Positions 26,961 to 61,530 are shown, counted from the first letter of the stretch. The stretch: DNA of 64,000 bases from Acidimicrobiia bacterium (GCA_030584185.1 CP129495.1:1789469-1853468); one strand, 5' to 3'. The notes: generated by a model not told the origin, from the sequence alone. Program-made: numbers and translations.

Positions 26961-27037
26961 CGCGGGGTGGAGCAGTCTGGTAGCTCGTCGGGCTCATAAC
27001 CCGAAGGTCGCGGGTTCAAATCCCGCCCCCGCTACCA
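26961..27037 (+). tRNA. tRNA-Met (CAU), initiator-type
   Basis: cloverleaf folded by hand; anticodon CAT at 26995-26997; three G-C pairs closing the anticodon stem; 5' CGCGGGG / 3' CCCCGCUACCA as in actinobacterial initiator tRNA. Confidence 0.85.
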
Positions 27038-27040
27038 CCG

Positions 27041-27068
27041 AAAAACCCTTGCACCGCAAGGGTTTTTC
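27041..27068 (+). terminator. rho-independent terminator after the tRNA
   Basis: AAAAACCCTTGC-ACCG-CAAGGGTTTTT perfect hairpin. Confidence 0.75.
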
Positions 27069-27104
27069 GCTTGTCAGGCCCCTGTCTCAACCTGGCTCTT
27101 GAGG

Positions 27105-27130
27105 GCTCCATCGCACATCCATCGCACACG
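27105..27130. repeat. 'CCATCGCACATCCATCGCACA' motif, copy 1 (att-arm-like)
   Basis: same motif at 30787 and 59106. Confidence 0.6.
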
Positions 27131-27324
27131 CCGATCACAACGAGACGTGCCAAGGCGCAGCGGGTGGGCTCCTTAGAGAGGTCTGTAACTCGGAGGTTGT
27201 GAGGGCTCCCAAGGTCCTCAGTGGGGAGGGTGGCTACCCTTGGCACGTGACTGGATCACTTCTTCGGACTCTTGCCACGCAGCGTGAGCCGTCCGAACCG
27301 ATCAGCGTTCGGTACGACGAGGCG

Positions 27325-27441
27325 ATGAAGATCAGCCTCGTCTACGAGGACGACCGGTGGGTACCGAGCTGGGAGTCACGGAAGGTCCAGAACACCAAGA
27401 AGTGCGACCACGAGACGGGTGAGGACCAGAAGGGCGCTTGA
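27325..27441 (+). CDS. candidate graspetide precursor peptide (small ORF; alternative start at 27199)
   Basis: small ORF directly upstream of, and overlapping the start of, the ATP-grasp gene; C-terminus 'NTKKCDHETGEDQKGA' rich in T/K/D/E. Confidence 0.3.
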   Translation: MKISLVYEDDRWVPSWESRKVQNTKKCDHETGEDQKGA

Positions 27442-28367
27442 GGACATCCACGGCTGCCATCCTCACGAACGAACGGGACTTCGCTGCCGATGTCGTTGTC
27501 CATCGGCTCCACGAGCTCGGAGTTGAGGTTCACCGAATCAATTACGAGGCTGCACGCACAAGCGAAGTCCCACCCTGGAGCCCATCGACGTCGGATCGCG
27601 ACGGCGAGCCCATGCCGAGCGTCGTGTGGTGGCGGCAGTTCGAGACCGATGAGAGCCCAGAAACCTTGCAGGACGTGGACGATCTCTTGGTCGAGCGGAC
27701 TCAGTGGCGGGCATGGGTTGCCACGCTTGCATCACCGAACAGCACCTGGATGAACGACCTCTGGGCTGCCCGGCGTGCCGAGAACAAGGTCGAACAGCTC
27801 CGCGTGGCGAAGTCGGTGGGGTTCAATGTCCCGCCGACTCTCATCACGAACGATCGGTTCAGGGCGATTGAATTCGAACAAGCCGTCGGCCCAGCGGTGG
27901 TCAAGACACTCTCCGCCGCCTATTTCTCGTTCTCTGACAAGTCGTTCGTATTCACCGAGCGCCTCGATCAAGCCACCGCCCTGCCAGCCGAAGCCTGGCA
28001 TGCCGCGCCGGTCGTCATCCAACAGCTCATCGAAGGCGGACTCGACGCAAGGGTCGTGTCTCTCGCTGGCCGCTGCTTCGCAGGCCGGTGCCGGAGCCGC
28101 GGACTTGACTGGCGGAAGACACCCTTCGATCCGGAGCTCTGGGAGCCATGGAATGCGCCTGAGCAGATTGTGCATGCGTGCGAGTCCTATCGCGCAAGGC
28201 TTGGCCTGGAGTTCGCCGCCTTCGATTTCATGATCACCTCGGAGTCCATCTTCTTCTTGGAGGCCAATCAAGCTGGAGAGTGGCTGTTCCTCGACAGGGC
28301 ACTCGACCTCGGCGTCGGCCTCGCGATCGCAGACCGGCTCGTCTCGCTGGGCAGTACTCGTGACTGA
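27438..28367 (+). CDS. ATP-grasp enzyme, MdnC/MvdD-like (RiPP graspetide maturase-like)
   Basis: pre-ATP-grasp N-terminus 'AAILTNERDFAADVVVHRLHELGVEVHRIN', ATP-grasp core 'FLEANQAGEWLF'; lower GC than its surroundings. Confidence 0.6.
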   Translation: MRTSTAAILTNERDFAADVVVHRLHELGVEVHRINYEAARTSEVPPWSPSTSDRDGEPMPSVVWWRQFETDESPETLQDVDDLLVERTQWRAWVATLASPNSTWMNDLWAARRAENKVEQLRVAKSVGFNVPPTLITNDRFRAIEFEQAVGPAVVKTLSAAYFSFSDKSFVFTERLDQATALPAEAWHAAPVVIQQLIEGGLDARVVSLAGRCFAGRCRSRGLDWRKTPFDPELWEPWNAPEQIVHACESYRARLGLEFAAFDFMITSESIFFLEANQAGEWLFLDRALDLGVGLAIADRLVSLGSTRD

Positions 28368-59718: not shown

Positions 59719-60576
59719 CTACCTCGGTTCGCTCCGGGCGCTGGCCCAGAACGCTCGGAGGATGATCATCGCCTGGTCGACGGTGGCTTCGGCAAGCCCG
59801 AGTTCGTCGGCGAAGGCGGGATAGTCCTCGGTCCAGAAGAGGGGCGGATCGGGCAGCTCGTCCGGAACCGGGTGGGTGGCCCGTACCGAGAAGACGTGTT
59901 GGGTCGCACTCATGGCTCTTCCTGCGTCGAGGCCTCCATGGATGAAGGCGACCATGTCGGCCAGGTCTTTGACCCTGGTGTTGTCTCGAGCGTCCCATGG
60001 TCGAGTCATGGCGTGGACCTTCTCGGCGAACTGCTGGGCGACGTCGGTCGCTTCGACTTCGAAGTCCTCGAACCCGGCGAAGGACAGGAGAGAGGTCAGC
60101 GGCAGCATCTCGGTGCTGGTCAGCTCATCGGTCCTGGCGACCACGTCGACCCGAACCGTGGCGAAGTTCCTGCCCGCCAGGTCGGCGGAGACACTGAAGC
60201 GCCACCCTGGCCGACCTGCCTGGTCTGTCTCGAGAGCGGTCGGTTCCGACACGTCGAACAGGAAGCCGTCACCTGCCGGATCGATCGAAACGGCAGCGGT
60301 AAGGCGCTCATGGGCTTCGATCGCACCTTCCGCGTCGGTGCGAAGGTTGAGGTCGAGGTCCTTGGTCATCCGGGCCGAGTCACCGATGCGAAGCTCGACG
60401 GCCATGCCGCCCTTGACCACCCACATCCCCGGCTGACTGGTGATCAGGCGGAGCAGGATTCGTTCGAACACCACCCGACGGCGGAGCCGATTGAGGTCCG
60501 TGCCCGTCTCGCGGGCCTGGTTGAGCAGTCGTTGCTCCAGGGCCTGGCGGAAGGCGCCGACGGACTCATAGGTCAC
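59719..60576 (-). CDS. abiEii: AbiEii/AbiGii-family nucleotidyltransferase toxin (type IV TA)
   Basis: 285-aa protein with conserved N-terminal motifs of the family; overlaps the AbiEi-like gene. Confidence 0.7.
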   Translation of the reverse strand: MTYESVGAFRQALEQRLLNQARETGTDLNRLRRRVVFERILLRLITSQPGMWVVKGGMAVELRIGDSARMTKDLDLNLRTDAEGAIEAHERLTAAVSIDPAGDGFLFDVSEPTALETDQAGRPGWRFSVSADLAGRNFATVRVDVVARTDELTSTEMLPLTSLLSFAGFEDFEVEATDVAQQFAEKVHAMTRPWDARDNTRVKDLADMVAFIHGGLDAGRAMSATQHVFSVRATHPVPDELPDPPLFWTEDYPAFADELGLAEATVDQAMIILRAFWASARSEPR

Positions 60577-61172
60577 AGCACACCTGCTTGGCGGAGAGCT
60601 CGTTCCATTCGCAGGGCCTCGCGGTGTCCTCGGTGTTCGGCCTCCCGTCGTAGTTGCTGCGGGGCAGTGTGAGGAGCAAGGTTGGAGACGTTCTTCACCA
60701 CCTCGGTGAGTTGTTCCAAGCTGAGATCGCTCGCTGCGGAATCGATGGCGGTTCGGAATGGGGTTGTGATCCGATACCCCTCACGATCCCACACGTCGCC
60801 GTCGGCCAGCTCCCCGTGGTGGAGGACGACCCCCTTTGCTCTGGCGCGGAAGCCCGGCGGAACCGTGAGGTGCACCCGGCTGGGGTTCACGTCGGCGAGG
60901 TCGTGGATCGAGATGGCGGTGTCGTGGGAGACCACCCCGAGACCTCGGCTCCAGAGCGTCCACCTGACGAGGTCGTCGTGATCACCGACCGGCCACTCGG
61001 GGAGCCGGTAGATGCCGCGGGCGACACGCTGCCAGTTGCCTCTTTGCGTGTGATAGCTCTGGGCGGGGTAGGAGTAACCGAGGTCGAGCGCCTGGCCGGC
61101 GGAGAAGTAGCCGCTCTGGATGGCGGCCAGACGACGAAGCTTGTGCTGGACATCACGGCGATCGGTCGACAT
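60573..61172 (-). CDS. abiEi: AbiEi-family antitoxin/transcriptional regulator
   Basis: 199-aa protein, N-terminal winged-helix 'LRRLAAIQSGYFSAGQALDLGYS'; ATGA overlap with the toxin. Confidence 0.65.
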   Translation of the reverse strand: MSTDRRDVQHKLRRLAAIQSGYFSAGQALDLGYSYPAQSYHTQRGNWQRVARGIYRLPEWPVGDHDDLVRWTLWSRGLGVVSHDTAISIHDLADVNPSRVHLTVPPGFRARAKGVVLHHGELADGDVWDREGYRITTPFRTAIDSAASDLSLEQLTEVVKNVSNLAPHTAPQQLRREAEHRGHREALRMERALRQAGVL

Positions 61173-61317
61173 CCCGGGTCACCTTCGTTGAAGTTTGGTG
61201 CGTCATTATTGCACAAACCTTCAACTCTTTTGAAGGATTCTGCGGTTCAGACCGCCTGCCGGGTGGCGACCTCAGGCGCCACCAGGCATAGTGCCGAGAA
61301 ACCGATCGATCCCGGAC

Positions 61318-61340
61318 TTCTAACGGATCTTCTAACGGAT
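61318..61340. repeat. 23-nt direct repeat CTTCTAACGGATCTTCTAACGGA (right copy)
   Basis: identical to 59333-59355. Confidence 0.75.
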
Positions 61341-61445
61341 GGGACGTCACGAGGGGTTACCCACAGGCATCAGCCATCACGCCGATTCCGCGAAAGCCCA
61401 GGTAGTGAGCACCATTGAGCATCAGCGAGAACCAACCAGAACCCC

Positions 61446-61488
61446 CGGCGAGGAACTCATAACCCGAAGGTCGCGGGTTCAAATCCCG
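61446..61488. repeat. 43-nt tRNA-Met 3' fragment (attR-like core, copy 4)
   Basis: identical to tRNA 26993-27035. Confidence 0.8.
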
Positions 61489-61490
61489 CC

Positions 61491-61530
61491 CCCGCTACGG
61501 AGCAAGGACCCAGGCCGTGCCTGGGTCCTT
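61491..61530 (+). terminator. hairpin GGAGCAAGGACCCAGG-CCGTG-CCTGGGTCCTTGCTCC
   Basis: perfect 16-bp stem immediately after the tRNA fragment. Confidence 0.55.

Follow-up and report, generated by a model that had tools for sequence, protein, structure and literature searches.

A likely accretion island with metal resistance and defence genes behind the initiator tRNA-Met gene of an Acidimicrobiia bacterium

The tRNA-iMet locus and its repeated 3' ends

The stretch of 64,000 nt from the genome of an Acidimicrobiia bacterium (GCA_030584185.1, CP129495.1:1789469-1853468), called the window in the following and numbered from its first nucleotide, contains a single tRNA gene found by ARAGORN, a tRNA-Met(CAT), and directly 3' of it an island of about 34.5 kb (27038-61498) that is subdivided by direct repeats of the tRNA 3' part. 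The tRNA sequence combines the mismatch C1xU72 with three anticodon-stem G-C pairs and an A11:U24 pair, which we take, from established knowledge of bacterial initiator features, to identify an initiator tRNA-Met (tRNA-iMet). The region has the properties of a genomic island: it lies immediately behind an intact tRNA, carries direct repeats of the tRNA 3' part, is linked to an integrase family and deviates in composition. The guanine-plus-cytosine (GC) content is 0.700 for 1-26960, 0.653 for 27038-61498 and 0.687 for 61499-64000. Gene calls were based on third-position GC, and the called genes were compared with Pfam and NCBIfam; resistance, defence and insertion sequence (IS) genes occupy the island, while transport and housekeeping genes are found upstream, and the foreign content begins within about 160 nt of the tRNA. 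A preceding model-based annotation made without database searches, the sequence-only reading, had placed a switch in gene content exactly at the tRNA. The fall in GC and the gene classes on both sides agree with it, and its inventory of a tyrosine integrase, two IS3 copies, a transposase remnant and an AbiEii/AbiEi toxin-antitoxin pair was recovered as well (Table 1).

The repeated core of the tRNA spans 26988-27042. When the tRNA region was compared with the window by BLAST, the 46 nt of 26990-27035 recurred without a mismatch at 59231-59276, as previously claimed, and the alignment extends to 55 nt (26988-27042 and 59229-59283, 54/55 identical), the single difference changing the encoded CCA into CTA in copy 2. 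Copy 3 is also real (26993-27035 and 61456-61498, 43/43 identical), although its earlier placement at 61446-61488 was 10 nt too far left. Altogether, the last 43 nt of the tRNA before the CCA (CTCATAA...GCTAC) occur exactly three times (26993-27035, 59234-59276, 61456-61498), and this 43-mer was not found once in 100 dinucleotide-preserving shuffles. All exact copies point the same way as the tRNA, and their starts fall within or beside the anticodon loop. The block of identity begins with the first anticodon-loop base in copy 3, as it does in the related contigs L057, L138, L139 and L141, and with the 5' strand of the anticodon stem in copy 2. Each of the three exact cores is followed by a distinct strong hairpin (z -4.5 to -8.3), which is expected if each element supplied its own tRNA 3' end together with its own terminator. 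A truncated fourth core consists of 12 exact nt (30909-30920) and 5/7 of the next nt. Taken alone it is at chance level (E about 1), but its place at the end of a 144-nt block (30784-30927) with 85% identity to 59104-59247 makes it credible; hence the degenerate copy claimed before at 30903-30920 stands, with its position corrected to 30909-30927.

Table 1. Coordinates of the features of the tRNA-iMet island in the window
Position	Strand	Feature	Evidence
26961-27037	+	Intact tRNA-Met(CAT), attL	ARAGORN; Rfam tRNA 65.6 bits
27041-27128	+	Left arm: hairpin T1 (27041-27067), then tandem X repeat CCATCGCACAT CCATCGCACA (27108-27128)	Fold -21.8 kcal/mol, z -4.5
27199-29154	+	Module A cargo: 80-aa ORF, ATP-grasp ribosomal-peptide-maturase-like protein (27438-28367), 264-aa ORF	TIGR04187 E 6e-48
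29437-30749	+	IS3-family copy 1: TGAACC...GGTTCA inverted repeats, OrfA/OrfB, ALIL frameshift pseudoknot	Pfam, Rfam
30784-30927	+	Relic attR: P-type arm, X repeats (30785-30805), truncated tRNA core (30909-30927)	85% identity to 59104-59247 over 144 nt
30928-36400	.	Module B, without own att site: YnfA, ArsR/SmtB, P1B-ATPase (31997-33964), ArsR, CDF (34677-35579), DUF3179	Pfam; frame analysis
36401-37713	-	IS3-family copy 2, inverted relative to copy 1; truncated gene on both flanks	Pfam, Rfam
37714-38818	-	Tyrosine integrase, cut after residue 368/383	PF00589 E 1e-24; PF14659
39002-55437	.	Module C cargo: 199-aa ORF through second P1B-ATPase	Pfam
55439-55493	+	Relic P-type arm: one X unit and hairpin, without tRNA part	Sequence comparison
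55636-59000	.	Module D cargo: CBS, rhodanese, DF-family protein, MerB, MerR, CDF	Pfam, NCBIfam, translation
59104-59283	+	attR of modules A-D: P-type arm, X repeats (59105-59125), core copy 2 (59229-59283)	Repeats
59284-59358	+	Integrase-side (P') arm of module E: hairpin T2 (59284-59315), Y repeat CTTCTAACGGAT CTTCTAACGGA (59336-59358)	Fold -27.7 kcal/mol
59532-59702	-	IS3-family OrfB transposase remnant, in the place expected for the module E integrase	42% identity to window OrfB residues 143-201, E 4e-11
59719-61172	-	AbiEii toxin (59719-60576) and AbiEi antitoxin (60573-61172)	PF08843 E 2.6e-28; PF13338 and PF09407
61317-61498	+	attR of module E: Y repeat (61317-61339), 116-nt arm, core copy 3 (61456-61498)	Repeats
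61499-61535	+	Hairpin T3, presumed original downstream flank of the tRNA	Fold -41 kcal/mol, z -8.3

The cores are accompanied by arms with two kinds of short tandem repeats, termed X (unit CCATCGCACA) and Y (units TTCTAACGG/TTCTACCGG), which are putative protein-binding arm sites. The X repeat is placed 65 nt after core 1 (27108) and 103 nt ahead of the cores at 30909 and 59229. The Y repeat downstream of copy 2 recurs exactly, over 23 nt, 116 nt before core 3. A conserved motif of about 130 nt had been reported in front of each internal copy of the tRNA 3' end. It is indeed common to 30784 and 59104, whereas at 27106 only the 23-nt tandem repeat TCCATCGCACATCCATCGCACA matches and lies downstream of the tRNA, and copy 3 is preceded by a different arm with two units of CTTCTAACGGA. 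The arrangement of arm plus core found at 59104-59283 is also present in L020, L057 and L058. Furthermore, 59284-59357 is 79-86% identical, in hairpin and repeats, to the sequence that separates the integrase stop codon from tRNA-iMet in L003 and L005-L008. Since this part of the window resembles an integrase-side arm, an integrase gene would be expected from 59358 onward; instead, the IS3-type transposase remnant and the AbiE pair are found there. On the left side, the tRNA and the following 80 nt (26938-27118) are 94% identical to L130 (11119-11295), compared with only about 71% for the flanking genes, and the homology ends exactly between the two X repeat units. The high identity behind the tRNA fits a shared mobile arm.

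The integrase and its linkage to tRNA-iMet

The motifs R...HxxR...H...Y are readable in the translation of the integrase. Its closest relatives have 383 aa and show 95, 88 and 81% identity, and by comparison with them the gene is broken at IS3 copy 2, 15 codons short of its end and eight codons after the catalytic Tyr. In a tblastn search of the window, only residues 1-368 were recovered and no second integrase or integrase remnant was found. The break gives rise to a predicted chimeric open reading frame (ORF) of 493 aa (37337-38818, minus strand), in which integrase residues 1-368 continue in frame into the HTH_Tnp_1 domain of IS3 OrfA.

The undamaged arrangement can be seen in L003, which stems from another sample and matches 37714-41303 with 91.6% DNA identity, covering the integrase, the 199-aa ORF and the ATP-binding cassette (ABC) transporter genes. 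Beyond the point of the IS3 break, L003 continues with the last 15 integrase codons, a run of TTCTACCGG-type repeats and a hairpin, and then reads into the tRNA-iMet 3' end in reverse complement; L005-L008 have the same order. A full tRNA-iMet gene adjoins integrase relatives in L006 and L140, following Y-type repeats and a hairpin, and in L002, whose left flank is a 48% relative of that of the window, a C-terminal integrase remnant begins about 50 nt after tRNA-iMet. Because the relatives in L003, L005-L008, L140 and L002 adjoin tRNA-iMet in this way, the integrase family is tied to this tRNA, with the 3' end of the integrase gene facing it. The 199-aa ORF beside the integrase was also considered as a homologue of a 199-aa ORF in L058; the two are unrelated.

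Related arrays in other contigs

A metagenome scan with the conserved 17-nt arm box returned 120 loci, only three of which are true relatives (L057, L020 and L058). L057 contains arm, core, hairpin, Y-type repeats and integrase in this order, and L020 arm and core with the integrase about 700 nt further on. L058 has three partial cores in 7.5 kb, and the modules between them, of 1.4 and 3.6 kb, contain no integrase. L141, a contig of 700 kb, carries three tandem partial cores; behind each of them come a hairpin, Y-type repeats and an integrase or a fragment of one. The P arms of L141 continue into coding sequence without X/Y-type repeats, and arm repeats are missing from the far side in some relatives. 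The closest genome relative, L001 (68% identity on the baeRF protein), has an integrase-less module of 4.3 kb behind its tRNA-iMet, which shares hairpin T1 and the arm box with the window. Given the arrays in L057, L020, L058, L141 and L001, tandem accretion at tRNA-iMet appears to be the normal behaviour of this integrase family.

Two further observations concern these contigs. In L001 the 4.3-kb module is flanked by a variant tRNA 3' part (11256-11320 and 15606-15672), in which the 19-nt insert CCCTGYTGGTTCGGAKCCA takes the place of TAACCC from the anticodon loop and stem, and an intact tRNA with its own terminator lies just upstream. Defence cargo stands beside the same arms in other metagenomes as well, namely a SIR2-like protein and a type I HsdM methylase (L057 16-801, L020 1-983).

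IS3 copies and module E

The two IS3 copies, 1313 bp each, differ by 5 mismatches (99.6% identical) and have the marks of the IS3 family, i.e. OrfA with PF01527, OrfB with PF13276 and PF00665, and TG...CA inverted repeats; the ALIL pseudoknot, present in each copy, has an Rfam score of 50.5 bits, against a gathering score of 50. No target-site duplication of 3-4 bp exists at either copy (flanks ACC/TCG and CAG/TTC), and crossed combinations of the flanks also mismatch, which points to later recombination between the copies. Two simple scenarios were rejected. An inversion between the inverted copies restores neither DUF3179 nor the integrase tail and yields no direct or crossed duplications; a composite transposon, made of the IS3 pair and module B and inserted into the integrase gene, would require a duplication and an integrase tail at the left outer flank, and both are missing.

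Module E (59284-61455, 2.2 kb) has matching 23-nt Y repeats on both arms and no integrase; its only genes are AbiEii/AbiEi and the transposase remnant. From its structure, it would qualify as a cis-mobilisable element (CIME), since it keeps attL and attR and has no integrase or transfer genes. AbiEi and AbiEii are adjacent with an overlap of 4 nt, as in AbiE type IV toxin-antitoxin systems.

Cargo of the modules

The cargo comprises resistance to copper, to zinc/cadmium and to organomercury, together with an ATP-grasp cluster resembling those for ribosomally synthesised and post-translationally modified peptides (RiPPs). Modules A-D are similar in GC (0.63-0.67). The ATP-grasp protein of module A matches NCBIfam TIGR04187 under the curated cutoff, and MvdC with E 1e-42; Pfam gave no match for the module A ORFs (27199-29154). 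The 264-aa ORF is without a family match and partly hydrophobic-looking. As the 80-aa ORF lies directly upstream of the ATP-grasp gene, a graspetide-type RiPP cluster is possible as island cargo. RiPP-like genes had been named in the sequence-only reading; they lie at 27199-29154, while the small ORFs at 34650-35594 were rejected after frame analysis as artefacts antisense to the gene of the cation diffusion facilitator (CDF) at 34677-35579.

Module B carries the Zn/Cd-type genes, and its DUF3179 gene has lost the first ~130 codons. Module C starts with the 199-aa ORF and an ABC transporter, followed by a copper block that consists of a CopA-like ATPase (YHS and HMA domains), cupredoxin, MerR, redoxin, CsoR, two cytochromes c, a plastocyanin-like protein, a two-component system, a Met/Gly-rich protein and a second P1B-ATPase. 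Beside the two-component system, the ORF at 51397-51945 (minus strand) encodes a signal-like segment and a Met/His/Gly-rich tail (MGSGNMMGSGNMMGGNGMMGG); it is without a family match and looks like a periplasmic copper-binding protein. A direct repeat of 36 nt, 92% identical, is found at the upstream end of the ABC ATPase gene (41847-41882) and inside the start of the MerR ORF (45098-45133), and might be a shared operator or promoter. In module D, the CDF ORF (58029-59240, plus strand) matches only positions 2-49/78 of the dimerisation-domain profile, runs as low-complexity sequence through the arm and takes its stop from the TAA in the anticodon loop of core 2; its 3' end seems to be lost and the C-terminal domain incomplete. 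Beyond core 3, DUF4760 (61820-62467, minus strand) and then a GMC oxidoreductase were identified by Pfam.

The metal clusters of module C show about 77% nucleotide identity to plasmid clusters of Rhodococcus and Streptomyces. Near-identical cargo was not found on known plasmids, these best matches being confined to the ATPase clusters. Among the ORFs scanned (27199-62467), neither Pfam nor NCBIfam matched a relaxase, type IV secretion system, FtsK-like TraB, Rep, excisionase or Spd, and the conjugation and replication functions that integrative and conjugative elements (ICEs) or actinomycete ICEs (AICEs) have are therefore absent from this set. Capsid, terminase, portal and tail genes were likewise absent from the scanned island ORFs, which sets the region apart from a prophage.

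Flanks of the island

The gene just upstream of the initiator tRNA (24966-26450, plus strand) encodes a baeRF family 3 protein (bacterial archaeo-eukaryotic release-factor-like; E 2.8e-37), and the neighbourhood of baeRF and tRNA-iMet is preserved in L001, L002 and L130-L133. Empty sites were sought by a contig scan with this baeRF gene, which returned only two relatives (68% and 48%), and then by homologue look-ups for baeRF and DUF4760, all contigs of which break at the tRNA or at 59673. L129, from the same species with 96% nucleotide identity, ends before the tRNA, and L130-L133, with a relatedness of about 70%, break off at the tRNA or a short way behind it. On the right side, L134-L137, which represent the same species in four samples, are collinear with 59673-64000 and 98.7-99.5% identical.

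All four of these contigs end at exactly 59673, inside the IS3-type transposase remnant. Such a shared stop would fit an assembly break induced by a repeat, and the left neighbour of 59673 may differ between strains.

Origin of the island: probable accretion and decay, and alternatives

We consider it likely that the region is a composite genomic island which was built by serial integrations at tRNA-iMet and decayed later. Directly observed are the repeats and arms, the truncations and the tie of the integrase family to tRNA-iMet, tandem arrays included. Sequential site-specific integration, as already proposed in the sequence-only reading, agrees with the exact direct repeats, their own hairpins, the conserved arms and the integrase relatives that adjoin tRNA-iMet (L006, L140, L002) or its partial copies in tandem (L141, L058, L057). 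According to the proposed course of events, elements with a tRNA-iMet-specific tyrosine integrase would have inserted one by one through attP x attB recombination within the part of the tRNA from the anticodon loop to the 3' end, the crossover falling most likely in the anticodon loop. Each incoming element would supply its own tRNA 3' part, thereby keeping the tRNA gene intact, as well as its own terminator hairpin, and would displace the earlier elements and their partial tRNA copy downstream. The most recent arrivals should then lie nearest to the tRNA, and the order from left to right would read tRNA, module A, relic arm with truncated core, module B, module C, relic at 55439, module D, arm with core 2, module E, core 3 and the original flank.

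Decay would have followed by several steps. An IS3 copy presumably cut the sole integrase 15 codons from its end, and IS3-IS3 recombination or a deletion may account for the loss, between 30927 and 37714, of the remaining core together with the integrase-side arm and the integrase tail; module B, without att sites, would have been left between the relic core and IS3 copy 2. Another IS3-type element could have removed the integrase of module E. With its sole integrase truncated and fused, the island has probably lost its mobility, unless an integrase is supplied in trans.

Several points weigh against this interpretation. Neither an empty site nor an excised form was found among the contigs of relatives (L129-L137, L001 and L002), and synteny of the right flank with L001 and L002 was not found either, so that only the repeat defines the right border at 61498. 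A native flank with a conserved native terminator, rather than the arm of an element, could explain the first 80 nt after the tRNA. The junctions around the IS3 copies are not explained by an IS3-IS3 inversion, which restores neither a gene nor a duplication, and no mechanism can be recognised for the left junction of module B (30927/30928). Moreover, the arms occur in the mixed combinations X/X, Y/Y and X-type P with Y-type P', for which a simple picture of one integrase with one kind of arm site does not account.

These arm combinations touch on a different, rather doubtful role of the locus, namely that tRNA-iMet serves as a gene-capture platform at which modules with X or Y arms are inserted and shuffled in trans by a resident integrase. 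The modules may then be units of 1.4-4 kb, mostly integrase-less, with conserved P/P' arms and exchangeable X or Y repeats at fixed distances from the core. This would account for the X-type arms on the tRNA-proximal side of the integrase-bearing element in the window, L057 and L020 and also for the integrase-less modules without a visible integrase remnant in L058 and L001. A somewhat better, though still minor, chance must be given to the arrival of 27043-59283 as a ready-made composite in one event beside a resident AbiE mini-element, with the relics as scars from earlier hosts. The identical 21-nt X repeats near both of its outer ends (27108 and 59105) and the similar GC of modules A-D speak for it, and whole composites can excise and transfer together according to reviews (PMC5704250). 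No observation separates such an arrival from accretion in situ, but the 91.6% match of L003 is confined to the integrase, the 199-aa ORF and the ABC genes, so that module C is seen elsewhere with an intact arm and not as part of a composite.

It is improbable that 59104-59357 represents the intact attP of a circular element which entered by IS3 cointegration or recombination, making 37714-59357 circularly permuted. Joining 59357 to 37714 would leave only ~50 nt, the integrase tail, missing, and the order arm-core-arm-integrase without a full tRNA does exist in L057, L020, L138 and L139. Yet the integrase tail is absent after 59358 by tblastn, the right end at 59358 does not abut the same IS3, and the exact Y repeat at 61317-61339 sits where the far arm of a separate module E is expected; in L141 and L058, arm-core-arm junctions are part of ordinary tandem arrays. 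Hardly any weight remains for partial tRNAs as leftovers of duplication or random pseudogenes in a variable segment unrelated to integrases. The failure to see an empty site or excision product would suit this explanation, but the copies are exact, directly oriented and start in or next to the anticodon loop, the conserved arms are met again, together with integrases of this family, in unrelated metagenome contigs, and composition and gene content shift at the tRNA.

Comparison with known systems

Serial integration followed by decay would place the island among elements that are well described. Accretion at tRNA genes has been reported, as have decay to CIMEs that lack an integrase but retain both att sites and the mobilisation of composites en bloc (PMC5704250), and accretion with subsequent decay to att-flanked, integrase-less elements is described in two sources (PMC5704250; bioRxiv 10.1101/2020.12.28.424599). 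The tRNA-linked composites related to ICESt1/ICESt3 of Streptococcus thermophilus and the asn-tDNA islands of Klebsiella resemble the window in their insertion into a tRNA 3' end and in the direct repeats between modules (PMC5704250, PMC4891358), and furthermore in att-flanked modules without integrase, represented here by module E, and in IS-mediated decay. The window differs from them in its Acidimicrobiia-like host, its initiator tRNA-Met target and its metal and RiPP-like cargo; conjugation or mobilisation genes were not found among its scanned ORFs. Tycheposons show stacked integrations, scattered partial tRNAs and fragmented integrases (bioRxiv 10.1101/2020.12.28.424599), and those of Prochlorococcus carry adaptive rather than transfer-related cargo, as in the window. 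In contrast to them, no replication/helicase-primase module or genes like those of phage-inducible chromosomal islands (PICIs) were seen here, and phylum and environment are different.

AICEs such as pSAM2 and SLP1 have a tyrosine integrase beside attP, live in high-GC Gram-positive hosts and insert into the 3' part of tRNA genes. The window is similar in this layout of integrase and attP, in the high-GC Gram-positive host and in the tRNA 3' target, and different in that Rep, FtsK-like TraB, Spd and Xis had no Pfam match among the island ORFs scanned. The IS3 copies correspond to their family in length (1.3 kb), TG...CA ends, OrfA with HTH_Tnp_1, OrfB with HTH_21 and rve, and ALIL; they deviate from it by the missing target duplication of 3-4 bp.

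The locus shows a route by which an uncultivated Acidimicrobiia-like lineage gains resistance to copper, zinc/cadmium and organomercury as well as an abortive-infection system, namely one initiator-tRNA hotspot. In addition, the exact positions of att cores, arm repeats and module borders help to detect related elements in metagenomes and to set their limits. The region is a known kind of genomic island without a new mechanism; it is of interest for its host lineage, for the initiator tRNA as target and for the good resolution of its arms and modules.

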